Source: Candidatus Jorgensenbacteria bacterium (GTDB taxonomy: Bacteria; Patescibacteriota; Minisyncoccia; UBA6257; GWB1-50-10). Taken from it: a stretch of DNA of 64,000 bases. The stretch lies in the NCBI GenBank assembly GCA_030648515.1, contig JAUSHK010000001.1, forward strand, positions 9,688 through 73,687, written 5' to 3'. The stretch's first letter is position 1. Every line of letters begins with the position of its first letter. The translations under genes were made by a program, and so were the position numbers. Below are positions 1,497 through 16,008 of the stretch, piece by piece. The notes beneath the pieces were generated by a model. It was not told the DNA's origin. It saw nothing but the letters and a program-made list of their open reading frames with translations, and did no database searches.

Positions 1497-2927
1497 TCAA
1501 TATTTTGTATCCACATAGTATCCGTGCCTGCCTCCGCAAGGATAGCCGTTTTTGTCCTTGTGTTTTCTTATGCTGTTGTTTTGCTTGCTTTTTGTAAATT
1601 TTTTTCCGCAATAACTGCATTGATAAATATATTTCGGCCCAAACGTTGAACGTCTTGGTTTTCTTGTTCCGCGTCGACGCGGGGCAGCAGTTGGCCTATT
1701 TGGGTCAAACAAATATGGATTTTCTGGCTTTTCGCCGGCTTTAGATAGTTCTATCGGAAATTGTGGCGTAAACTTTTCGTCCGTGTTTTGTATTGACTCG
1801 ATTTTCGCTGCCACAAAACATCTGATGCCAGGTCGGTTTTCCCCGCCACTTCTGTTAAATACATAGAAATATTCTTGCTCCGCGCCATCTTTCCTTTGTA
1901 AATATTTTAATGAATACGGCTCGACTATTCTGTCCGAACCTTTGTAGCGGACTTTTAAAAGAGTTTGTTCTCGTCCTGCTTTCATTATTGGCTCTCTCAA
2001 TTCGGGGCTAAAATAGGCAAATTGCGCAAAGCCGTTATCAGGATAAAAGCCGAACAGCACCTCTAAATCAGCAATAAATAAATTTATCGCTTCATCCACA
2101 CCAAACAAAAATTGTTTTGTGCATATAACAGTTTTGGACCAGAACTCCTTAAAATAATCAAACGGCATTTTGCTTAGAATATTTTTCAAAATATGCGGAT
2201 TTCTTCCAAAAATGGTTTTTTTCACAAAAGTTCTGACAACCTCTTCCTTGTTCAATTCACCTCCCAAAAGTTTTATTGAATACGCATAATCAAACAAATC
2301 GGGGGCATGCTGTCTCTGTAAAAGACACTTCAATTTCGTGGCAATAATTTCTTCAAGTTTCATGCATCGAATTTTGCAGGCAACTTTGTCCGCATCCGAA
2401 TATGGATGGATTAGGTCAACAGTTTGAACTGGTAAAAGGACTTTATCAAAACGGGTAATATCCATTGAAATTTTGATTTTAATATGCTCCGAATTTCCAT
2501 AAAAATCTTTAAAATAAATTCGTGCTTCATAAACGCGCAACCCAGGTATTGGAGCTTCGGTAGCCGAAAACTTTTCTTCAATTTTATTTTGTTCTTTTAT
2601 AAAGGAAACGCCAGCTTTTTCCTGAATAAAATCGCATACTTTATTTATTTCATCAAGCAAGACAACTTGGGTTATATCGCCAGGGATTCCAAAATCCAAA
2701 TCGGACGAAAAACGAGTGTTTTTGAAGTATCCCTTGCGCAAAGCATTCCCGCCCTTCAAAAATATGGTGTTTTTTAGACTGCTGGTTGTAAAAATCCCAA
2801 AAATCAACCATCCAAAAACATAATCCCGCTCAACATTTGCTTCGTGGATTTCGAATTCTTTTGCCTTAGTTTTAATTTCATTCTTGGAAATCATGACAGA
2901 ACCTGGTATTTTCCATATTTGAATCAA
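1497..2927 (-). CDS. AbiEii/DUF1814-type nucleotidyltransferase fused to a WYL-like domain and a C-terminal zinc ribbon
   Basis: N-terminal LKGGNALRKGYFKNTRFSSDLDFG matches the AbiEii NTase signature (hLKGGtAL...RfSeDiDf). Around residues 310-390, RIVEPYSLKY...EYFYVF...IRCFVAAKIESIQ fits the WYL-domain pattern. After a basic linker (RRRGTRKPRRS) the C-terminus reads YQCSYCGKKF...H...PCGGRH. Confidence 0.7.
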   Translation of the reverse strand: MIQIWKIPGSVMISKNEIKTKAKEFEIHEANVERDYVFGWLIFGIFTTSSLKNTIFLKGGNALRKGYFKNTRFSSDLDFGIPGDITQVVLLDEINKVCDFIQEKAGVSFIKEQNKIEEKFSATEAPIPGLRVYEARIYFKDFYGNSEHIKIKISMDITRFDKVLLPVQTVDLIHPYSDADKVACKIRCMKLEEIIATKLKCLLQRQHAPDLFDYAYSIKLLGGELNKEEVVRTFVKKTIFGRNPHILKNILSKMPFDYFKEFWSKTVICTKQFLFGVDEAINLFIADLEVLFGFYPDNGFAQFAYFSPELREPIMKAGREQTLLKVRYKGSDRIVEPYSLKYLQRKDGAEQEYFYVFNRSGGENRPGIRCFVAAKIESIQNTDEKFTPQFPIELSKAGEKPENPYLFDPNRPTAAPRRRGTRKPRRSTFGPKYIYQCSYCGKKFTKSKQNNSIRKHKDKNGYPCGGRHGYYVDTKY

Positions 2928-3007: not shown

Positions 3008-3808
3008 TTACATAATAACTGAGGATAATTCCTTTCCTCGTTGGATCAATCTTTTTACGTCTTCCTCTTGAATATTCTCTTTTGGATGGGCGCAGTAATT
3101 TCCAATTTTAAATAGGCTCTCTAATTCAGATTTCTGGATTGCATTTATGACTGTTTCCTGCTCCAATGTATTAAGAATATCACTTACGCCAGGCTTCTTT
3201 TTTGACGGAGGATTGACCCCAATCGTTAAGGAGCGACTATTCACTACGGTTAACAAATGTCTTTCAAGCGCAACACGGGCAATTACCCCGCTTGCTCTAA
3301 TAGCAACTTCAATGAGTGGATAAGATTTCAATATTTCTTCGGCACTGGTGAATTCATCACAAGCAACGTTGAAACTAAGTTGAGTAACAACTTCAAGCTC
3401 TCTTGAACAAACTTCCTCCGCTAAACTTAAAAGTAATGAGCGAGCTCTCTGAAAGTATTCGGAAAAAAGGCCAAAACATTCTTCTCCTTGCACAAACGGT
3501 GGCCACGTAATTTTCTTCCCATAGCAATTAGTTCCAATATTAATATATTGTTGAATATCTGTAAATGATCTCCGACCTTGTTTATCATTTTTGGAACTAT
3601 CATAACAACCATCGAATTCTTCGACGCCGGAAAAGTGCTGTTGGACCAATAATTCTCTTACTCCGCGATACCATCTCTGTCCCTTAACAGATAAATCTGG
3701 CTGAACAATCTCGCCCTTACTTAATCTTTTGGCCAAGCTAAAGACCTCATTTGCTAATTCCTCTAATTCTTGAGCTCTTTTTGTTAATTTTATCAACTTT
3801 GATTTCAT
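3008..3808 (-). CDS. DUF4145-domain protein, co-operonic partner of the AbiEii-like gene
   Basis: C-terminal ~95 aa (AIRASGVIARVALERHLL...SDILNTLEQETVINAIQKSELESLFKIGNYCAHPKENIQEEDVKRLIQRGKELSSVI) follows the DUF4145 pattern R..LE..L...L...I..L...I...L..iGN..AH...i..ed. It lies 80 nt upstream of the AbiEii-like gene on the same strand. The N-terminal half is unrecognised. Confidence 0.55.
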   Translation of the reverse strand: MKSKLIKLTKRAQELEELANEVFSLAKRLSKGEIVQPDLSVKGQRWYRGVRELLVQQHFSGVEEFDGCYDSSKNDKQGRRSFTDIQQYINIGTNCYGKKITWPPFVQGEECFGLFSEYFQRARSLLLSLAEEVCSRELEVVTQLSFNVACDEFTSAEEILKSYPLIEVAIRASGVIARVALERHLLTVVNSRSLTIGVNPPSKKKPGVSDILNTLEQETVINAIQKSELESLFKIGNYCAHPKENIQEEDVKRLIQRGKELSSVIM

Positions 3809-4004
3809 ATAGCCTCGATGACTGATTTTTGCATATTCTTAAATCTTCAAGATTACCTTGATTTTGAGAAAATGTCTCAGACTACTAATGAGTTATAATT
3901 ATGAGGATGCCAAACGCGCAGTGGAGTTCTCATCCACAATTCGTTTGTAAGCATTTAAAACAATATCCATAACCATTCTGTTGGCCAGATGCAGTCTTAA
4001 TATA

Positions 4005-4038
4005 TTGAGGAATTATATTCTTTCTAATTTATTCCTCA
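4005..4038 (-). terminator. Hairpin terminator overlapping the stop of the PHP-ATPase gene
   Basis: TGAGGAAT...ATTCCTCA inverted repeat followed by a T-run on the minus strand. Confidence 0.45.
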
Positions 4039-6920
4039 GGAAAACTGTACTTTTGTTCGCGCTTCTGAAATGCTTCCTTACCACCCTCTAAAATCTCACA
4101 CACATGTTGCCGAATGCCCTTTCGGAACAAAATTGCCGGCTGCTGTGTTGCGCTCAGTTCAAAGGCGTTTTCGAGAGCACCCGAAACGTACTCGAAGTGA
4201 TACTTTTTGTTATCTCTGCCGACCTCTTGCCCAGACTGATTTGCAACGACAGACTCTTCTCCGTCTGCTCCGACAACAAGGTTAGGGTTATGTGTTACAA
4301 TAATAATTTGTCGCTTGAGCTTCTTCTTCTTTAAGAATTCTACTAGATCATCGTAAACAGAACGGTTGTCGAGATCGTCCTCGGGTTGGTCAAGTAGAAT
4401 CGGCCATTCTTCGTTGCTCAAGTTAATGAGTAATTGCAAAAGAACAAGCCCCTTCTTGCCGGGCGACATTTTATCGAGAGAGTCATTTTTGTAAAAAATC
4501 CGGAAATCAAGGTAAAAATAATCATCGAGCAACTTTGTCACAGCATCCTTTGCTTGGCGATTTTTCACTGTGTTAATGGTACCGTCAATCAGTCCATCAA
4601 ACATAGCAGTGATATTTGTTAAATGTTTTGTTGGATCATATCGATATACAAATTCTTCGCCCCATTCCGCCTCAGCGATAACTCGTTTAAGGTCGCGCTT
4701 ACTGAGAAATTCCTTGATTACATTTGAATTAAATGAGTCGTCATTAAAGCCGACATGCACGCCCAAGGTAATATCACCGAACCTGCTTTCAAATGTTTTA
4801 AACTCATTCCGTATTCCTTCATATTTGGCGATGATCTGCTTATAGGAGTCAATTATTGCTTTGGCTTTCTTCTCATGGGAAGTCTTTTTTGCTTTGAGAT
4901 TGTTTCTCTTAATAGCGATCTCATTCAGCTTCTGCTGTTCTTTATTGATGGCGTCGGATTTCTGCCGCAATTCTGATTGCAATTGAACTTTTGCAAGCAA
5001 CGGACCAAGTTCTGCGTTGATTCTTGTTAATTCGAAATTGTGTGTTGTGATTTTTGCATCAACTGCATTAAGCAAATTGGAAATAGCTGATTCCACTGTT
5101 GGCGCAAAGGAATCCAAAGCTTTTAGCTCCGCCTTGAATTTTGCCTTTATGTCTGTGTCATTGAGATAGGTTTCGTATTCACTGGTAATGGACTGTATTC
5201 CGGTGACTTGTTCAAGTATAATTGAGCGCAAATTCCTGACCATCTTTTTATCTTCTTCAAGATGAGAAACTTGAGCATTTATAGTTTTTTCTTTGTCTAC
5301 CAATTCTCCATACTGTATGATCTGTGCATCAGAAAGTCCGGATTTTAATTTTATCTCATCTGCCTGTTTCTGTAGTGTTTGAATGTAATTTTCAATACCT
5401 TTCTCGTCGCCAGTCTGTTTTAGTTCTTCTTCTATCTTTTTAATATCATCCTGATCAGAGAATAGCTCATTAATCGCGGTAGGAATGGACTTCGCCGTTG
5501 TCTTGATTTCTCGAACCGTTTCCTGATATTTCTCGTTAATAGTTAGATCTTGCAGAATTACACTTAAAACGAATTCGTTAAGGGCCTCACGGCTGCGAAT
5601 ATTGGATTCCGATAGTGTATTAAGATACCGTTGAGGAATATAAAGTATTTTCCGTTCTTTTGATTCGCCTTCTGCGGAATCCGTTGGTGCATTCAATAAC
5701 GTGCGTTGACCATCCAGCCAGGTAACTTCAAAATTAAAACCCGGTGAATTGTCGAAGTCGTATTGTACCGGAATTCCGCTGTCCACCATCCGATTTTTTA
5801 CTTCCTGTTTATCAATGGTTTTTGCTATATAGTAAAGCAAAAGCGACTTGCCAGTTGATTTACCACCGATGATGGTCGTGAGATTTTGATTAATTTCAAT
5901 CGGATCACTACCGAATTTTATATCACTACTATTATCTAAAAAACGCACTTTATCAATAATGAAATATGACTTCTTTTCCTCAGGTCTCTGCAACCCAACA
6001 AAAATGCGTTGTTCCGGCTCATAGATGATCTGTTTTAGGCCCTCAAAAGTGGGGTCTGCTTTAATCCACAAATAATTGCCATCCTGATCGCTTCTACCAT
6101 AATCATGCAACGACCTTGCATCAGAACTGATATGGCAACAAAATTTTGCAACCAATGACGTGTTGCTTTTTATGTATTCAGAAATCACTATTGATGATCT
6201 GTGATGTTGAGACTGAAGAAGGTTTATCTTTTGATGATTAAAAATATCAGCCAAGTGAGTTCTATCCATACTCGTTCTTGCCTGAAATAATCCGTTAGTG
6301 CTGTTGCAGTGAGGGTAAATTACTATGCCATTGTTTCTTTTTGCCTCATCGAGAATATCCTTGATGTCTGCGGAAGTGGTGGTAAGCACTCCATTGGTAT
6401 TTGTACGGTTATTAATATTAAATTTCACTAAAAACGCATGGATTCCATCAGAAAAAGTTGATTTTTGATAAAGCTTGTCCGGGAAGAACAAGAGCATGTG
6501 AATCCCTTGGCAGTTTATCTCAACACCGGGGATTACTTTGCATTGCGTCCTTTTGGAGTACTCGATAAAGGTATCAAGCAATTGCTCATCAAAATAGTTG
6601 TGATCCGTGATACCGATGCATTCAAGCCTTGGGTGAAAGACATCCAAATATGCAAAAAGGTTGCGAACGTAATTCTGACAGCGCTCGTTTTTCGCAAGAT
6701 TGGCATCGTTGAAGTACGTTTTTGAATCGTACAAAATGGCATTTGTTTCGCCACCAACTTTGCCAATGAATTGCTGCCATCCAGCGAGATTCACCTCCTT
6801 AATACTTTTGTAGTATTGGTCAAGCGACACATAATCATCGTCCAAGATTGTTTGCACATGCAAGTCCCACTGTCGCCAAACTGATCCTTTTGGATATGGA
6901 AAATTATTCATAAGATTCAA
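4029..6920 (-). CDS. PHP-domain phosphoesterase fused to an SMC/Rad50-like ABC ATPase (PplA/TrlF-like)
   Basis: N-terminal PHP motifs DLHVQT, GITDHN, IPGVEI, HMLLFFP. Then Walker A GGKSTGKS, a coiled coil of several hundred residues, a signature-like SPGKKG, Walker B ILLDQPEDDLD and an H-loop VTHNP. It sits 79 nt downstream of hsdMS on the same strand. Confidence 0.7.
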   Translation of the reverse strand: MNLMNNFPYPKGSVWRQWDLHVQTILDDDYVSLDQYYKSIKEVNLAGWQQFIGKVGGETNAILYDSKTYFNDANLAKNERCQNYVRNLFAYLDVFHPRLECIGITDHNYFDEQLLDTFIEYSKRTQCKVIPGVEINCQGIHMLLFFPDKLYQKSTFSDGIHAFLVKFNINNRTNTNGVLTTTSADIKDILDEAKRNNGIVIYPHCNSTNGLFQARTSMDRTHLADIFNHQKINLLQSQHHRSSIVISEYIKSNTSLVAKFCCHISSDARSLHDYGRSDQDGNYLWIKADPTFEGLKQIIYEPEQRIFVGLQRPEEKKSYFIIDKVRFLDNSSDIKFGSDPIEINQNLTTIIGGKSTGKSLLLYYIAKTIDKQEVKNRMVDSGIPVQYDFDNSPGFNFEVTWLDGQRTLLNAPTDSAEGESKERKILYIPQRYLNTLSESNIRSREALNEFVLSVILQDLTINEKYQETVREIKTTAKSIPTAINELFSDQDDIKKIEEELKQTGDEKGIENYIQTLQKQADEIKLKSGLSDAQIIQYGELVDKEKTINAQVSHLEEDKKMVRNLRSIILEQVTGIQSITSEYETYLNDTDIKAKFKAELKALDSFAPTVESAISNLLNAVDAKITTHNFELTRINAELGPLLAKVQLQSELRQKSDAINKEQQKLNEIAIKRNNLKAKKTSHEKKAKAIIDSYKQIIAKYEGIRNEFKTFESRFGDITLGVHVGFNDDSFNSNVIKEFLSKRDLKRVIAEAEWGEEFVYRYDPTKHLTNITAMFDGLIDGTINTVKNRQAKDAVTKLLDDYFYLDFRIFYKNDSLDKMSPGKKGLVLLQLLINLSNEEWPILLDQPEDDLDNRSVYDDLVEFLKKKKLKRQIIIVTHNPNLVVGADGEESVVANQSGQEVGRDNKKYHFEYVSGALENAFELSATQQPAILFRKGIRQHVCEILEGGKEAFQKREQKYSFPEE

Positions 6921-6999
6921 TTTGTTATCTGCCTAAAAAGTGGTTTTATCAAAAAGTTGTACTTTTTATTTCTTTGATTATCTTGATGAGCCTATTTCC

Positions 7000-9429
7000 T
7001 CATTCGCCCCAAACTTCTGCGATTTTTGATTTAATCTTTTGCTCAGATAATTCAATGATTCTACGATTACCGTCAACGAAATCTTGCTCTTTTTCAATCT
7101 CAGTCAGAATTCTTAATTGTTCGTCAACTGTTGGTTTCGGGATATTAATGTTGATGCAATCATCAATACTAAAAGAAACATTTGATGTGCCATACATGAG
7201 ATTAGTGAAAAGATTGTCTTTTTCTTGAGAAAATAAATAGTAGAAGAATTTAGGAATTACTTGTTTATTTTTTGGCAACATTGCCATCAATATGTTACCA
7301 ACAGCAAACTTCCCCTCTACATAATAGATTCTCTTGAGAGTTGCTTTTCCGTGCCCAGCCGATGAAATCAACGGAATGATAATTGCCTTTTCATCAAACT
7401 GATAAGAATCTGAAGTAGAATAAGATTCTCCAGTGGTAACCAGAGGATATTTACCGGGTTTTGTTTTCTCTATCGGAGTTAGTCCCTTCTCCAATTGGAA
7501 ATAATTTCCCAGCTTCACTTTTTGCCACGTAGGATCAATTTTTATGTAGGGACAGTATTCGGTCAAAACACGCTTTGCGCTTCTAATTAAGTGATAATCA
7601 TGTTTGAAACTCACTTGAACAGACTGCGGAGGTATCGGAATTTCTAGTTTAATTAAATCATTGAAATTTAATGTTTGTCTAACAGCTCCTGCCGCTAACA
7701 AATTGATTTGTTCAAGCCCTTTTCTGCTTTTTAGCAAGTAATAAAGATACTCTGGTACCAATTGGGAGCCATCTTTTATTTTAAAGACCGTGTACATGGG
7801 GCTTACTAAGCCCCGCATCCCATTAGAGTTGATTGCTATGGATCCAACATTTATACGGGCGGGGTTGTAGACAAAATTATTTACATCAACCACCTTATAG
7901 TTATCAAGATTTCTTGAGCTAACTGTTTCATTAAAATAGTCGTCTGAGTTAATTAGTCCCTGCTCATTAGAAACTGAGAAAACAATAGGACTCTCCAGAT
8001 TGTTTTTCTTTTTTACTTCTTCAAGATGTTCAGCAAGAGGTTCCAGTGGAAAGGCAAGATCGCGAGATACGCCAATTTTATATTTATTACCTCTTAAAAT
8101 ATAATCCCCATCGCTTTTAATATCTTCTTTCGTTACACCGAAGACGGAAGCATGATGTGAAAACCAACTTTTAATTTTGGTTGGACTATTTTCTGTTACT
8201 TCCTTATAGGAACATATAGTTTCCAGGACTTTTGGAATGTCGTTTTTCTCTATAACTCTTTTTCTATTCCCACCCTCAAATCCATCAAAGCTTATGTCTG
8301 CAAATAAAATCCAAGGGGATAATTTTGCCAGCTGCTTATCAAAAAAAAGTATGCTTGTTTTAACGTCGGCGTATGGCTTAAAAACTCCAGGATGTAAAGA
8401 TACTACAGCATAAACTATGTCATCTTTAATAAGCATTTTCCTAAGGGCAATATATGCAGCGGAATTCTTATTTGATACTACTCCGTCTGGTACAATTACA
8501 GCACCCTTACCCTTTGAATTAAGATGTTCAGTAATATAATCAACAAATAGTATTTCTGAACGATTTGCCCGTACCATGAAGCGTTTATGCGGACGGATGC
8601 CGCCCTTTGGTGTCATGAATGGAGGATTTGCCATAATGACATCAAAACGCTCATTCCATTTTTCTTCGCTTGTGAGTGTGTCGTATTCGTGAATATTAGG
8701 GCTTGGGAAGCCGTGTAGGTACATATTAACGCGGGACAGCTTTACCATATCCGGCGAAATATCATAACCTGTCAAATTGGTCATCAAGCGCTTTTTCTCG
8801 TCAGGAGAAAGAGGCCGGTCTTTGGTTGCCTTCAAAATATGCTTGTAGGCAGAGACTAAGAATCCGGCCGTGCCGCATGCGGGGTCAAGGATGGTCTCAC
8901 CTTTTTTCGGTTCAACTACCTCAACAATGAAATCAATAATGTGCCGCGGCGTACGGAATTGTCCAGCGTCGCCCTGCGATCCAAGAACCGAAAGCAGATA
9001 TTCAAAAGCGTCTCCTAAATTTTCGCTATGATCATAAGTAAACCCATTGATCTCTTTCAGAAATAGGTTGAGCGTTTCCGGGTCACGGAATGGGAGGAAG
9101 GCATCTTTGAAAATGTCTCTGAAAAGTTGTTGTAGGTGCGGATTTTGAGACATCTTGGTGATTGCCTCACTATAGAGATTGAGCCTATCATGTCCGCCTA
9201 GTTTTGGATCCATTAATTTGTTCCAGGCATATTTCTCATAACCATTCGTAAAAAATTGTGCCTTGCCTCTGGGCAACGACATGGATTCCTTATCCATATC
9301 ATCCATGAATTTGTAAATCAGCGCAGTAGTTATTTGCTCAACCTGTGCCTTTGGATCGGGAATTTTACCAACAAGAATATCCCGCGCTGAATCAATCTTC
9401 TTTTTTATCTCTTGGGTCAACATGGTCAC
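7000..9429 (-). CDS. hsdM: Type I R-M fused HsdM-HsdS subunit (N6-adenine methyltransferase plus two target-recognition domains)
   Basis: The methyltransferase half has GTAGFL (SAM binding) and NPPF. The C-terminal ~400 aa carries two HsdS-like TRDs, each ending in a conserved spacer (LEIPIPPQ...; NINIPKPTVDEQLRIL). Its ATG overlaps the hsdR stop (ATGA). Confidence 0.8.
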   Translation of the reverse strand: MTMLTQEIKKKIDSARDILVGKIPDPKAQVEQITTALIYKFMDDMDKESMSLPRGKAQFFTNGYEKYAWNKLMDPKLGGHDRLNLYSEAITKMSQNPHLQQLFRDIFKDAFLPFRDPETLNLFLKEINGFTYDHSENLGDAFEYLLSVLGSQGDAGQFRTPRHIIDFIVEVVEPKKGETILDPACGTAGFLVSAYKHILKATKDRPLSPDEKKRLMTNLTGYDISPDMVKLSRVNMYLHGFPSPNIHEYDTLTSEEKWNERFDVIMANPPFMTPKGGIRPHKRFMVRANRSEILFVDYITEHLNSKGKGAVIVPDGVVSNKNSAAYIALRKMLIKDDIVYAVVSLHPGVFKPYADVKTSILFFDKQLAKLSPWILFADISFDGFEGGNRKRVIEKNDIPKVLETICSYKEVTENSPTKIKSWFSHHASVFGVTKEDIKSDGDYILRGNKYKIGVSRDLAFPLEPLAEHLEEVKKKNNLESPIVFSVSNEQGLINSDDYFNETVSSRNLDNYKVVDVNNFVYNPARINVGSIAINSNGMRGLVSPMYTVFKIKDGSQLVPEYLYYLLKSRKGLEQINLLAAGAVRQTLNFNDLIKLEIPIPPQSVQVSFKHDYHLIRSAKRVLTEYCPYIKIDPTWQKVKLGNYFQLEKGLTPIEKTKPGKYPLVTTGESYSTSDSYQFDEKAIIIPLISSAGHGKATLKRIYYVEGKFAVGNILMAMLPKNKQVIPKFFYYLFSQEKDNLFTNLMYGTSNVSFSIDDCININIPKPTVDEQLRILTEIEKEQDFVDGNRRIIELSEQKIKSKIAEVWGE

Positions 9430-11939
9430 ATGTACGAGTTAAGTGAAACGTAATCCTTTACGTAATCCGGCACTACCTCAATCCATTTATTGAGTTCTCG
9501 TAAATCAGATAGAGTAAGCTTTGGGTTCGTCGCAAGCCTGGGATATTCTCCTCTCTCAATAATATCGCGTATCTCATTATCGGTTATGTATGCTTTAAGA
9601 TAATTTTTGAGTGGCAAAACATATTTACTCTCAGGTTTATGGATTGCAATAAATTTCTCGAATTCTTCTTCCAAGAGCTCATCTTTAGACTTGAAGCGAA
9701 CAATTCCTCCAAGAATTTTCTCAATAAACTCCCGCAAACTTATACGACGGTCAGATTTTATTGCTTTCCTCAGTTTTTCTAGATTGAAGTAGTCCTCTGG
9801 TTTATCAAATATTTCACCACGAACGTAATCCTCAACAGTCTCCAAATCACCTTCTTCATACTTTTTTTGAATGAACGGATCATTCTTGACCGTTGATTCG
9901 AATTTCTCAAACAGCTTCCTATCAATCTTCATCCCCTCAAACCCAATAGTCTTTTCAGCGAAGGTTTTCAGCGGGTCTGGTTGGAAGACTGAAACTTCAT
10001 TAATGGGCACACCGTCCACGTCACCGCCTCCTGCTCCTGTAATCGCGGGCAATCGGATGATTTCGTCATAGTTGTACTTTTCCTCGAAATACTCACAGTT
10101 CGCGAAAAAGTCAAAAAGCTTGAACTTTTCTTTCTCTACCTTCGCTTCTTGAATGCTATCGGCATTCTTTTCTTTGTGCACGAAGGAATATCTGCGGGTG
10201 CCGCGCCCTTTAATTTGAATAAAATCTGTCGGCGAAAAGATCGGGCGCATCATGCAAAGATTCAGAATATCCTCGCAGTCGTATCCGGTGGTCATCATGC
10301 CTACGGTGACGCATACCCTCGTCTTGCTGGACTGGTACCCCTCCAAGAATCTTGTTTGCCCATTGAGATTGTTATTGGCAAAGCTTACCGTGAACTGCTG
10401 AGCATCCGGGATGTTTGATGTAATCTGTACTGCAAAATCGGAATTGTATTTTCCTGGATACAACAGGTCTACAAACTGGTTTAGAATCTGGGTAATTTTC
10501 GATGCATGTTTTTGACTCACACAAAATACGATGCTCTTGCCGATTTCTCCGGTAATCGGGTCTCGTAAGGCATTTTCGAAAAAGGTTTTGCAAAAAATCT
10601 GGTTGGTTTTATCCGAGAAAAACTTCTTCTCAAAGTCGGTGTAGAAAAAGATTTGCTCTTCTTCTCTGCCTTCTTCTGTTTCTACCATGAGAGCATAGCC
10701 CTTTTCCGAGAGAAGTTCAGTTGTGATCTCTGTTCTTGCGTCGGCCACAATTGGATTAATCAGATAACCGTCTTTTACTCCATCAAGGAGGCTGTAGTGG
10801 AACGTCGGCTCACCAGATTCGCAGCCAAATGTTTTATAGGTATCCAAAAGCTGCCTGCGTTCCCATGCTCTTGGGTCCCTGTCATTGAGTTTCTCAGGAT
10901 CAATGCCTTTCAGGTAATTTTTGGGAGTTGCGGTAAGTCCCAGCTTGAAGCCTACGAAATATTCAAAAACTGCACGACTGTTACCGCCGATAGAGCGGTG
11001 GGATTCATCGGAAATGAGGAGGTCGAAATCTGTTGGAGAGAAAAGATGTTGATACTTGTTATTGAAGGAGAGGCTTTGAACGGTAGAAACAACAATCTCC
11101 GCTTTGCGCCAATCATCACGATTTTCTTTGTAGATAACCGTCGTGTAATCCTCGGCGAGCCATTTTTTGAAATTCTTCCATGCTTGTTGTTCCAGTTCAA
11201 TCCGGTCAACCAGGAATAGAACTCTCTTTGCATTGCCCGTCTTGAGAAATAACTTGATTATGGCGGCTGAAACAAGCGTTTTACCCGTTCCGGTTGCCAT
11301 CTCAAAAAGGTAGCGGTCATGACCCTTGGCCGCCGATTCTTGGAGTGCGTGGATGGCGCGAAGCTGGTAGGGGCGGAGAAACTTCAAACCCTCCGTCTCA
11401 GCGAATTCCTTCCGTTCCGCCTCGCTCGCCCAACGGGGATCATTTTTATATTCCAGCTTCTGCGTGAGGACAATATAATCCTCTTCGATCTTCTCGCCTG
11501 CAAGCCGCTTGTGGTCAGGTTTAAACTGCTCAACATGCACAAGGGAGTCAGGAGTGGGAAAAGTTACAATGACCGCAGGATTGCCGTGTTCCAGATCCCA
11601 AAAGTAATGGAGGTTGCCATTGGAAAGAATGACAAAGCGGACATTTAGGGATTGAGCATAGCGCCGGGCTTGCTCTTTACCATCCAAAGGATTTTTGTCC
11701 TCAGATTTGGCTTCCAATACGGCATACGGAAATCCATTTTTGTCTAAGAGCAAAAAATCAACATACCCATTTTTTGTTTTTTCAAAATCATTTCCAAGGG
11801 CATCGATGTCCTTTTTAGTCAGCTTAACATTGCTTTCCAACGCGACATTCGCCTTGCCGTCTTCATCATCAAAAAACCTCCAGCCGGCTTTCTGGAGAAT
11901 GTTGTTGATTTTTATGCGAGCTCTGGCTTCTTTTTTCAT
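9426..11939 (-). CDS. hsdR: Type I restriction enzyme HsdR (endonuclease/helicase subunit)
   Basis: N-terminal PD-(D/E)xK nuclease (DFLLLD...AVLEAKSED). SF2 helicase motifs MATGTGKT, DESH and GLTATP. Confidence 0.85.
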   Translation of the reverse strand: MKKEARARIKINNILQKAGWRFFDDEDGKANVALESNVKLTKKDIDALGNDFEKTKNGYVDFLLLDKNGFPYAVLEAKSEDKNPLDGKEQARRYAQSLNVRFVILSNGNLHYFWDLEHGNPAVIVTFPTPDSLVHVEQFKPDHKRLAGEKIEEDYIVLTQKLEYKNDPRWASEAERKEFAETEGLKFLRPYQLRAIHALQESAAKGHDRYLFEMATGTGKTLVSAAIIKLFLKTGNAKRVLFLVDRIELEQQAWKNFKKWLAEDYTTVIYKENRDDWRKAEIVVSTVQSLSFNNKYQHLFSPTDFDLLISDESHRSIGGNSRAVFEYFVGFKLGLTATPKNYLKGIDPEKLNDRDPRAWERRQLLDTYKTFGCESGEPTFHYSLLDGVKDGYLINPIVADARTEITTELLSEKGYALMVETEEGREEEQIFFYTDFEKKFFSDKTNQIFCKTFFENALRDPITGEIGKSIVFCVSQKHASKITQILNQFVDLLYPGKYNSDFAVQITSNIPDAQQFTVSFANNNLNGQTRFLEGYQSSKTRVCVTVGMMTTGYDCEDILNLCMMRPIFSPTDFIQIKGRGTRRYSFVHKEKNADSIQEAKVEKEKFKLFDFFANCEYFEEKYNYDEIIRLPAITGAGGGDVDGVPINEVSVFQPDPLKTFAEKTIGFEGMKIDRKLFEKFESTVKNDPFIQKKYEEGDLETVEDYVRGEIFDKPEDYFNLEKLRKAIKSDRRISLREFIEKILGGIVRFKSKDELLEEEFEKFIAIHKPESKYVLPLKNYLKAYITDNEIRDIIERGEYPRLATNPKLTLSDLRELNKWIEVVPDYVKDYVSLNSYM

Positions 11940-14133: not shown

Positions 14134-14830
14134 TTACATACCACTTTTGATTGTTGATTTGTAATACTCTGTGAAATGATCTGACGCACAACTGCACTTT
14201 TTTATTTCCTGGGCTGCTGCTGAAAGTTTTTCGAGAAGGTTTACTGTTTTTCCCGTGTTGCTGCGGAATATCTCAAGCACACTCTTCATCGATTCCGGTT
14301 GCATTGAGATTGTGCTTGGCACACCGACGTCGTAATCGGTCACGGTGGCAATAGCTCCGTAACAGATACCAAGCTCACGGGCAAAGTAGCACTCCGGGTA
14401 CTGCGTCATGTTGACGATATCCCCGCCCACATAAGCATACATTTTGCTCTCGGCAATAGTTGAGAACCTTGGGCCTTGAATGACAACTACGGTGCCGTGA
14501 GCTTGGCATGGCATCTTCATCATTCCAAGTTCACGGGCAATTATGCTTCGCACATGTTCGCAGTAGGGCCTTGCCATCGGCAGGTGGATGAGCTGGCGGT
14601 CAATATCAAAACTGTCATCTCTTCCCCATGTGAGATTGATGAATTGGTCCGGAATCACGAATGTACCCGGTTCAATCTCTTTCCGAAGGCTGCCCACAAC
14701 ACACGTTCCGATGACGTGCCGCACTCCAAGCGACTTCAGTGCGGCAAGATTCGCTTTGTATGGCACCTTATGTGGCGGGTGAAGGTGGCAACCGCCGAAT
14801 ACTATATCCGGCAGCTTTCGGAAAACGTGC
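14134..14830 (-). pseudogene. mtnP: 5'-truncated S-methyl-5'-thioadenosine / purine nucleoside phosphorylase gene
   Basis: The product aligns to MTAP/PNP family 2 from about residue 68 of human MTAP onward (HVIGTCVVGSLR...IPDQFI...GPRFST.AES...GGDIVNMT...ELGICY...ATVTDYD). The ~65 N-terminal residues, including the phosphate-binding GxxGGSG loop, are absent. The reading frame dissolves at ~14790-14830, exactly where the recombinase remnant begins. Confidence 0.55.
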
Positions 14831-15936
14831 GAAAGGGACTCAAAGAGAAGCTTGCACAGGGATGGCTCCCCACAAGACCGCCGCTAGGTTATATGACTAT
14901 TGGCGAGAGTGGGCACAAGGTGCACGTCATTGATCCCGTAAAAGCTCCGCTTGTGCGGAAAATGTTTGAATTCTATGCAACGGGTGAGTATTCTCTCAAA
15001 AAACTAATGGACGTGATGTATAAAAACGGATTGCGTGCCCGCAGCGGCAAGATGGTTGTGAAATCAAGAGTGGCAACCCTTTTGAGCGACCCCTTCTATA
15101 TTGGCAAAATTCGGTACAATGGTTCCGTCCACCCCGGATCGCATGAATCGCTCATTTCAAAAGAACTATATGAGAGCGTGCAGCGAAGACTTCTTGGCAA
15201 AGCGATTCCCCGATTCAGAAAACATTTTCCGTTATTCAAATCGTTGATTCGGTGCGCCATTTGCTCTGGTCTGATAACCTGGGAGGTGAAGAAAGGACAT
15301 TGGTACGGGCATTGCAACGGGTACAGGGCTTGTACCGCGCGAAAGTATGTAAGACAGGAATCCATTGAGCAACAACTGATACCCTATTTTGATAAAATTG
15401 TGATTAGAAGCGAACGCTTGGTTAATTGGATTAAGCAGGGATTGAAGGAGAGTCATCATGACCGAATCGCCTATAGCTCGAGTGCGAGGGATGAGCTTGG
15501 CAAACGTTATGAGGCAACGCAGAAGCGATTGGATATGCTCTACGACGACAAACTGGATGGTAAGATATCAGAAGATTTCTACCAAAGGAAATTGGCCCAA
15601 TACACAGCCGAAAAAGAAGAAATCTTGAGTGGGCTCAAACGCCATGACGCTGCCAATACTAGCTATTATGAACTCGGAGCGTGCATCCTTGATCTTGCCT
15701 ATAGAGCAAGAGCCATGTTTACAGACCCAAATCGCGCCACCGTGGATCGTAGGGCGCTACTGAACGTTATTTTTTCGAACCTGACGCTTAAGGACGATAA
15801 ACTCAACGTTTTTTACACCAAAGCGTTCGAAATAGTGTCGGAAGTGGTTCCGCTGTGGAATGAGAAATTCGAACCTTCAGAAACCCGCGCCATTAAAGGG
15901 GAAAATGCAATTTTAGGTACCGCGCGTCCTGTTATG
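14770..15936 (+). pseudogene. Large serine recombinase remnant lacking the N-terminal catalytic domain
   Basis: The ORF 14476-15996 shows serine-recombinase homology only from ~14775, starting within the E-helix (ATAEYYIRQLSENVRKGLKEKLAQGW). It continues through the recombinase domain, a zinc ribbon (CAICSG...CNGYRAC) and a coiled coil. The first ~100 codons of the track ORF are antisense to mtnP and are not coding. The catalytic Ser region is absent. The 3' end reads through into tRNA-Gln. Confidence 0.6.
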
Positions 15937-16008
15937 CTGGGAGACCAGGATTCGAACCTGAATTCACGGCTTCAAAGGCCGCTGTCCTACCATTAGACGA
16001 TCTCCCAA
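15937..16008 (-). tRNA. tRNA-Gln(UUG)
   Basis: Manual fold: U1:A72 acceptor stem (TGGGAGA/TCTCCCA), G73 discriminator, D-stem GTCT/GGAC, anticodon loop CUUUGAA, T-arm TCAGG-TTCGAAT-CCTGG. U1:A72 with G73 matches the E. coli tRNA-Gln identity elements. Confidence 0.8.

Follow-up and report, generated by a model that had tools for sequence, protein, structure and literature searches.

What does a gene that joins a PHP phosphoesterase domain to a Rad50-like ATPase do directly behind a restriction-modification (R-M) operon? This question is raised by a 64,000-nt stretch of a Candidatus Jorgensenbacteria metagenome-assembled genome (MAG; assembly GCA_030648515.1, contig JAUSHK010000001.1, positions 9,688 to 73,687; hereafter the window), whose minus strand carries such a gene at 4029–6920, downstream of the hsdR and hsdMS genes of a type I R-M system. 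An initial annotation of this DNA had read the product as a single-chain analogue of the SbcCD nuclease that forms a combined module with the type I system. Calling of open reading frames (ORFs) reproduced the frame reported there, which encodes 963 aa from a TTG at 6920 (stop codon at 4029–4031). An in-frame ATG at 6911 yields 960 aa, and residues are numbered here from this ATG; homologs begin at the equivalent methionine. A deposited hypothetical protein (P0001) of a Candidatus Jorgensenbacteria MAG matches the 960-aa product with 100% identity. By its sequence, we judge the protein to be a further member of a named family that lacks biochemical characterization, and not a new kind of system. 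Its relatives are recurrently placed directly behind restriction genes, and the protein is most likely an accessory defence nuclease.

The protein matched the NCBIfam model NF045780, 'TrlF family AAA-like ATPase', over its full length and above threshold (475.3 bits against a cutoff of 350; residues 11–958 on positions 1–943 of the 944-position profile), confirming the TrlF-like label that the initial annotation had suggested. The name derives from the Photorhabdus 'temperature restriction locus' (TRL), in which TrlF was annotated as a 'histidinol phosphatase' (PMC7554251). The likeness to Ppl, also suggested there, was borne out in part: kinship is real, but distant, with 99.1 bits against a cutoff of 1000 for NCBIfam model NF042955 (best stretch 812–954). 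Likewise, the PADLOC run proposed as a check did match the Ppl model PDLC02208, but with 65.8 bits and with a best-scoring stretch, 784–954, confined to the C-terminal lobe. The Spaf_1101 family AAA-like ATPase model (NF045781) gave 158 bits against a cutoff of 475. As these scores lie below the curated cutoffs, membership of the Ppl or Spaf_1101 families was ruled out. Pfam by itself says little: its matches to the protein comprised SMC_N (26 bits, cutoff 40) and AAA_21 (20 bits), and the weak AAA_21 and AriA matches fall on the C-terminal lobe. When the N-terminus was scanned in isolation, PHP (PF02811) reached 16.6 bits (E 0.01) and stayed below its cutoff of 26.4, a threshold that canonical TrlF-family members exceed. 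Since sequence searches of the PDB were marginal (Smc head at E 0.038 for the whole protein; RNase AM at E 1.3 for an N-terminal profile), folds were compared instead, using an AlphaFold2 (AF2) model built from a 24-sequence alignment (mean predicted local distance difference test score, pLDDT, 73.5; 88–96 over residues 10–200). Our literature search found no mechanistic study of TrlF, Spaf_1101, Ppl or PHP/ATP-binding cassette (ABC) ATPase anti-phage proteins; the name Spaf_1101 occurs there only as the locus tag of a gene bordering a conjugative transposon.

Genomic context was surveyed in 80 loci fetched from GTDB genomes, in which ORFs were called and neighbours scanned with Pfam. The 116 proteins encoded by the two nearest upstream ORFs included ResIII (10), N6_Mtase, N6_N4_Mtase and Methylase_S (5 each), DNA_methylase and Eco57I (4 each), GmrSD_N and HNH (3 each), and EcoRI_methylase, BpuJI_N, RE_CfrBI, Type_ISP_C and T1RH-like_C (2 each). 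No such richness in R-M families was seen in the two nearest ORFs downstream (108 scanned). That is, R-M genes are placed with a polarity, being frequent upstream and rare downstream of TrlF genes. When 28 related loci were scanned singly, the immediate upstream gene coded for restriction or modification in 18, a number that amounts to about a dozen independent juxtapositions owing to near-duplicate loci among the 28, and that we judge, without a background control, to exceed by far what random neighbours in a defence island would yield. These upstream genes encode type I HsdS (L013, L014, L064) or HsdR (L050, L053, L085), a type ISP enzyme (L068), type III-like ResIII proteins (L025, L028), the type II enzymes CfrBI (L018, L024) and HinP1I (L041), type II methylases (Dcm, N6/N4 methylase; L019, L060, L065) and type IV GmrSD plus HNH (L015, L021, L033). 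MvaI/BcnI adjoins the gene in a further locus beyond the 28 (L001). The distance to the R-M gene is usually 2–14 nt. In a 65-locus survey, 62 loci had an upstream ORF, and in 28 of these the nearest one was on the same strand and within 60 nt.

The partner thus varies in type, and it also varies in identity. Searches with the HsdM, HsdS, HsdR, DUF4145 and AbiEii proteins of the window against the relatives' neighbours (phmmer plus one hmmsearch iteration) returned 0–7 hits, so that the particular R-M partner seen in the window is not conserved. Comparative genomics has strengthened the connection to restriction that the initial annotation proposed, but not the combination with type I systems specifically: because relatives sit behind type I, ISP, II, III-like and IV genes, the link is, as far as neighbourhoods tell, to restriction in general and not to this type I system. 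Some TrlF-type copies have no adjacent R-M gene, being located alone in mobile elements or beside other defence genes. Since it also occurs alone in this manner, the protein probably acts autonomously and not as part of an R-M enzyme. Co-expressed accessory genes are known in operons of all four R-M types (PMC3632139; PMC12707154), and genes of the TrlF type seem to belong among these, although we found no paper stating this.

Could the same arrangement arise without any cooperation? A promoterless single-gene defence cassette that inserts 3' of well-expressed operons would, through clustering in islands and shared transcription, come to lie behind R-M genes merely by hitch-hiking. Several observations agree with this. 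Upstream gaps are often 2–14 nt, or the genes overlap, and the upstream genes are very diverse, including non-R-M genes (Hypoth_Ymh, DUF5655, DUF4391, an SbcC-like ATPase, Peptidase_M23, DUF2779). In addition, relatives of 72–77% identity have entirely different neighbours, and copies on plasmids can stand alone. However, hitch-hiking alone would not be expected to yield the judged excess of R-M genes immediately upstream, nor their consistent polarity, nor copies embedded between hsdS and hsdR as in the order hsdM-hsdS-trlF-hsdR of two loci (L013, 5173–13778; L014, 5214–13756). We therefore regard it as unlikely that the association with restriction reflects nothing but insertion preference.

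The position between hsdS and hsdR is presumably also that of prrC in the EcoprrI locus; the literature states only that prrC is embedded within the locus (PMC12707154). Following the logic of PrrC and PARIS, a TrlF-type protein could be a guardian of restriction, which is silent as long as the R-M system works and which, upon anti-restriction by a phage, triggers degradation of host and phage nucleic acids and abortive infection. The hsdM-hsdS-trlF-hsdR order would suit such a role, and PrrC, RloC and AriA are likewise ABC ATPases coupled to nucleases (PMC2610378, PMC3458546, PMC12707154). The AriA match on the C-terminal lobe, weak as it is, points in the same direction, as does the fact that the Photorhabdus TRL locus halts growth under stress (PMC7554251). 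However, that phenotype was mapped to trlG, which is absent from the window, and many copies of the family are found without an adjacent R-M gene. Moreover, with partners as structurally unrelated as type I, II, III-like and IV enzymes, a general silencing contact of the PrrC-EcoprrI type is unlikely. On balance, we consider a guardian function quite improbable, and return to a protein that is expressed together with restriction and complements it.

How would such co-expression be achieved in the window? The hsdR gene (9426–11939, minus strand; EcoAI-like, with ResIII, HSDR_N_2 and Helicase_C domains; PADLOC REase_I; NF046051 at 242 bits, under its cutoff) precedes an hsdM-hsdS fusion with two target-recognition domains (7000–9429, minus strand; N6_Mtase 181.7 bits, two Methylase_S stretches; PADLOC MTase_I 308 bits and Specificity_I), and the two genes overlap by 4 nt. 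HsdM and HsdS form one 809-aa polypeptide, and HsdR is comparatively short with 837 aa. The TrlF-family gene follows on the same strand directly after the hsd genes, the placement expected of a type I R-M accessory gene. The spacer comprises 79 nt (6921–6999; 88 nt when counted to the ATG), exactly as initially described. Folding revealed no stable hairpin in this spacer (z = 0.28), and a consensus scan found no promoter-like site in it, the nearest being located at 7076–7047 within hsdMS; promoter-like sites in the region occur at chance frequency, and the terminator scan is likewise at chance level. The common strand, the distance of 79 nt and the gap devoid of a terminator-like hairpin make co-transcription with hsdMS plausible, and the gene is most likely read through from the hsdR-hsdMS operon. 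A terminator after the gene, which the initial annotation had also reported, did not hold up: the consensus scan reports none on the minus strand at 3809–4028, and folding yields nothing but a weak hairpin that overlaps the stop codon (4005–4038, minus strand; 8 bp including 3 G-C pairs, a 17-nt loop and no U-tract), which is probably what had been taken for a terminator.

We turn to the protein itself. Its ATPase moiety is built like those of structural maintenance of chromosomes (SMC) proteins, Rad50 and SbcC, with Walker A, Q-loop, signature, Walker B and H-loop divided by an antiparallel coiled coil. All motifs quoted in the initial annotation are present, here and in the PHP domain. Walker A (GGKSTGKS, residues 349–356; 5844–5867, minus strand, as for all parts of the gene below) is invariant in alignment A1 and present in 109 of 113 close homologs, and Q427 in the Q-loop region (YIPQRY; 5625–5642) is invariant in the alignment as well. 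These are followed by the ABC signature variant MSPGKKG (residues 815–821; 4449–4469), Walker B and D-loop (ILLDQPEDDLD, residues 838–848; 4368–4400) and the H-loop (VTHNP, residues 872–876; 4284–4298). The coiled coil extends over residues 456–705 (4797–5546) with ~125 residues per arm and an apex turn at 582–586 in the AF2 model. This segment contains zero cysteines and so no zinc hook, and its apex is a 4-residue turn without an SMC hinge domain. Foldseek comparison with the PDB retrieved heads and coiled coils of MukB, JetC, Smc, Rad50 and LmuB (E 4e-8 to 1e-3). Thus, motifs, predicted structure, Foldseek and NCBIfam all agree with the fusion of a PHP domain to an SMC/Rad50-like ABC ATPase, as originally proposed.

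One deviation stands out in the head. The Walker B aspartate is not followed by the catalytic glutamate but by glutamine (D841-Q842), the resulting DQPE motif being shared by 131 of 137 diverse family representatives (one per 50%-identity cluster). Q842 aligns with the glutamine of VLDQVEAALD in the B. subtilis Smc head 5h66, whose sequence we take to be that of the engineered hydrolysis-deficient E1118Q mutant. The natural glutamine is the same change as in the engineered SMC 'EQ' hydrolysis mutants, which suggests slow hydrolysis and long-lived ATP-engaged heads; the glutamate two residues after Q842 might substitute for the catalytic one. Because glutamine occupies the catalytic position, the ATPase may act as a slow switch rather than as an SbcC-like motor. 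The C-terminal ~84 residues (4032–4283) hardly vary across the family, with many invariant columns (877–957), and the best stretches of the Ppl models extend into them; pLDDT is 24–42 here. This tail may serve interaction or regulation and fold only with a partner or in the dimer.

The N-terminal domain (residues ~10–305; 5997–6884) adopts the distorted TIM-like barrel of the PHP fold in the model, and Foldseek matched it to the PHP phosphoesterases 3o0f and 3e0f and to V. cholerae RNase AM (9etk; E ~6e-3 to 1e-2). Motif I (WDLHVQT, residues 15–21; 6849–6869) provides H18 and Q20, that is HxQ in place of the canonical HxH. Between motifs I and II a helical insertion of ~70 residues is found (22–93; 6633–6848; AF2 helices 34–92 with pLDDT >90), which is shared by only 9 of the 137 representatives. 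Motif II (GITDHN, residues 100–105; 6597–6614; D103, H104) aligns to ITDH of V. cholerae RNase AM. Motifs III–IV (PGVEI...GIHMLL, residues 128–132 and 136–141; 6489–6530) contribute E131 and H138, motif V (YPHCNS; 6300–6317) contributes H201, and motif VI (SSDARS; 6111–6128) contributes D264 and R266, with DxR replacing DxH. The PHP metal-binding residues are therefore present in part: judged by alignment, the pattern H18-Q20-H104-E131-H138-H201-D264-R266 retains six of the eight canonical ligands (HxH, H, E, H, H, DxH), whereas Q20 and R266 stand in for two histidines.

This erosion is not peculiar to the protein from the window. Across the 137 representatives, the two histidine positions of motif I are occupied by His in 109 and 119 cases, respectively, and the last ligand of motif VI is His in 118 and Arg in 16; only E131 and D264 are invariant (137/137 each). 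All eight ligands (HHHEHHDH) are retained in 17 representatives, and about 80 exhibit a reduced pattern (HHYEN.DH). The pattern of the query's nearest clade (QQHEHHDR; 8 representatives) has lost three ligands, and in the 120 closest homologs motif I mostly reads QxQ or QxH and motif VI mostly DxR. In PHP enzymes, one metal site is made up of the counterparts of E131, H138 and H201, a second of HxH and the Asp, and a third of the histidines of TDH and DxH. On this scheme, the query has probably kept the first site, with the other two weakened.

The notion of a PHP domain standing in for the SbcD nuclease is an analogy. Because the PHP site has lost two ligands, and three in the closest relatives, catalysis is uncertain in the query's clade. 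The domain may work as an enzyme with one or two metals, or else be non-catalytic like the PHP domain found in Pol III alpha of E. coli. In the latter case, it would be a structural or binding module, and the protein would be an ATP-locked DNA clamp or sensor that blocks replication or repair of foreign DNA, or that recruits another nuclease. The substitutions HxQ (QxQ in the nearest relatives) and DxR as well as the sub-threshold Pfam match are in line with such a module, and so is the Walker B glutamine with the long-lived ATP engagement it suggests. Furthermore, at a locus of a Daviesbacteria MAG (L006) the TrlF-like gene shares the 8 nt at its 3' end with a PDDEXK_1 nuclease gene (10834–11589), whose product might supply a nuclease in trans. 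At the same locus, a 1,532-aa AAA_11/AAA_12 helicase is encoded upstream of the TrlF-like gene. However, the invariance of E131 and D264, the retention of H104, H138 and H201 in the query's clade, which suggests that a metal site is still under selection, and the 17 representatives with a full ligand set all argue for catalysis, and we hold a purely structural PHP domain to be improbable.

Mobility of the gene bears on the remaining alternative. A profile search of 1.84 billion cluster representatives (50%-identity clusters) assigned 7,972 clusters to the TrlF family at E <= 1e-3 and 2,309 at E <= 1e-30. Copies of 73–77% identity were found in MAGs labelled WWE3, Patescibacteria, Gammaproteobacteria, Deltaproteobacteria and Bdellovibrionales (including L008, L009, L012, L014 and L017), which indicates either horizontal transfer, perhaps very recent, or contigs mis-binned from organisms of the candidate phyla radiation (CPR). 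A tblastn search of PLSDB located the family on 764 plasmids, 530 of them conjugative and most from Klebsiella and Escherichia; hundreds of these plasmids carry the gene under the name 'TrlF family AAA-like ATPase' given by the annotation pipeline PGAP. On the Klebsiella pneumoniae plasmid pKP29105-2 (NZ_CP091063.1; L088), for example, the gene is flanked by an Abi gene and by a pair encoding an 'ATP-binding protein' and a 'UvrD-helicase domain-containing protein', which by its annotation reads as Gabija-like. The TrlF gene is close to ccdAB there, and the plasmids concerned are clinical and of the IncFII type. The TrlF-family gene is thus mobile. A housekeeping role in DNA repair, in which the protein would replace SbcCD or Mre11-Rad50 as a single chain in the reduced genome of a CPR bacterium, could draw on the Rad50 and Mre11-Rad50 structures among the Foldseek matches and on the small-genome Patescibacterium as host, but we reject it as highly improbable, since patchy cross-phylum spread, plasmid carriage, a low-GC island and variable neighbours dominated by restriction genes do not fit a housekeeping gene, and a zinc hook is lacking.

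Taken together, the data make it probable that the protein is a defence-type ATPase-nuclease expressed with, and complementing, restriction. How might it work? ATP-engaged heads would bring about dimerization, a property common to all SMC/Rad50-type ATPases. The glutamine at the position of the catalytic glutamate would entail a long hold on ATP, making the protein a switch or clamp and not a motor. Heads and coiled coil would recognize DNA, with free ends or foreign DNA, for instance restriction fragments, as the most plausible target, whereupon the PHP domain would act as a metal-dependent nuclease; degradation or arrest would thereby be added to restriction as a second layer. Since the enzymes encoded upstream are unrelated to one another, we favour a generic signal, for instance the DNA ends produced by all restriction enzymes, over a specific protein contact. 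We offer this end-processing mechanism, in its specific version, tentatively and as rather unlikely to be correct in all its parts.

Apart from the near-duplicate loci mentioned above, several points weigh against our interpretation. The spacer of 79–88 nt is much longer than the 2–14 nt of the relatives and could harbour a promoter of its own. A PHP domain that has lost two ligands, or three as in the nearest relatives, may be non-catalytic, and glutamine at the catalytic position may leave the ATPase nearly inert. The substrate could be RNA instead of DNA, given that the structural matches include RNase AM and that Ppl is countered by a Ro60-like protein of a phage (PMC11482910). A TrlF model is missing from PADLOC, whose Ppl match is partial, and we found no experiment reported on any TrlF protein. 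Finally, the growth phenotypes in Photorhabdus all mapped to trlG and none to trlF (PMC7554251).

Several known systems invite comparison with the protein. With the TRL operon of Photorhabdus laumondii (trlR-trlF-trlG) it shares the PHP plus ABC ATPase architecture of TrlF. Differences are the type I R-M partner, the eroded PHP ligands and the extra ~70-residue insertion. TrlG (AlbA_2 plus HATPase_c_4) was not detected when TrlG-like proteins from three loci (L078, L083, L087) were searched by tblastn against the whole window, and TrlG-like genes account for only 4 of the 108 downstream ORFs scanned. A TRL operon as such was therefore rejected, the neighbours being hsdMS, hsdR, DUF4145 and AbiEii without TrlG or TrlR. 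Ppl, which functions from one gene alone and is termed uncharacterized in the literature (PMC11482910), follows the same two-domain logic of PHP plus ATPase and likely the same autonomous single-gene mode, but it is set apart by the score far under its cutoff and by an alignment that is best in the C-terminal part only.

Like the protein, SbcCD and Mre11-Rad50 pair a metal-dependent nuclease with an ABC head into which an antiparallel coiled coil is inserted, and Rad50 is among the structural matches. In contrast to these, there is one chain instead of two, PHP in place of the calcineurin-like nuclease, no CxxC zinc hook, a much shorter coiled coil, Gln instead of the catalytic Glu and a mobile defence context; Pfam detected no calcineurin-like (Mre11/SbcD) nuclease in the protein or its neighbours in the window. 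Lamassu (LmuB plus LmuA) and Wadjet (JetC plus JetD) likewise couple SMC-like defence ATPases to a nuclease effector, and LmuB and JetC are among the best Foldseek matches. However, the effector here is a PHP domain fused in cis, a hinge is missing, and no kleisin-like, LmuC, JetA or JetB gene lies nearby. In the anticodon nucleases PrrC and RloC an ABC ATPase is fused to a nuclease as well and is genetically tied to restriction, PrrC being located in a type Ic R-M locus; RloC also has a Rad50-like coiled coil (PMC3458546). The order of domains is reversed here, with the nuclease N-terminal, the nuclease is PHP and not a HEPN RNase, the zinc hook is absent, and, unlike PrrC with its type Ic locus, TrlF-type genes accompany R-M systems of every type. 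The resemblance to OLD, Gabija GajA and PARIS AriA consists in weak matches of the C-terminal lobe to AAA_21 and AriA and in a shared xPE context of Walker B, but those are AAA_21/AAA_15-type ABC ATPases with Toprim nucleases, whereas the present protein has a long coiled coil, PHP and DQPE instead of DEPE.

In the window, the TrlF-family gene is part of a low-GC array of same-strand genes (AbiEii, DUF4145, TrlF, hsdMS), with a GC content of 0.375–0.395 as compared to 0.459 in the remaining window. Next to it, 220 nt downstream, a DUF4145 protein is encoded (3008–3808, minus strand; PF13643, 24.6 bits), followed by an AbiEii-type nucleotidyltransferase (1497–2927, minus strand; PF08843, 85 bits; PADLOC AbiEii, 162.7 bits) with a long C-terminal extension. 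The C-terminal 206 aa of the latter matched no Pfam family and contain a Cys-rich motif. There is no obvious AbiEi antitoxin next door; a helix-turn-helix protein is encoded at 570–1007. On the other side of the hsd genes, an N-terminally truncated ORF for a purine/methylthioadenosine phosphorylase (14134–14766, minus strand) overlaps an ORF on the plus strand (14476–15996) that has a 'Recombinase' domain only, without the resolvase catalytic domain, and that reaches into tRNA-Gln (15936–16007, minus strand). The segment 14134–16007 looks like the scar of a serine-recombinase element beside a tRNA gene.

What is modestly new here, namely the recurrent linkage to restriction, the natural Walker B glutamine and the mosaic loss of PHP ligands, concerns the family rather than this locus. 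The family is very large, is common on clinical conjugative plasmids and has never been studied biochemically. Its polar, near-zero-gap placement behind all R-M types, the family-wide glutamine in Walker B and the mosaic of PHP ligands, with just two invariant positions, make it easier to test. Jointly, these three observations suggest the hypothesis of cooperation with restriction through DNA ends, which applies to TrlF and Ppl alike. In its boldest form, which we put forward as speculative and unlikely, TrlF-type proteins would be portable 'post-restriction' modules, in which a hydrolysis-impaired SMC-like clamp engages ends cut by any type I–IV enzyme and a remodelled PHP domain destroys or caps them. 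If true, such modules would provide in cis the end-processing that RecBCD or SbcCD give model bacteria, and this would explain why the gene is found at the 3' end of many unrelated restriction operons.

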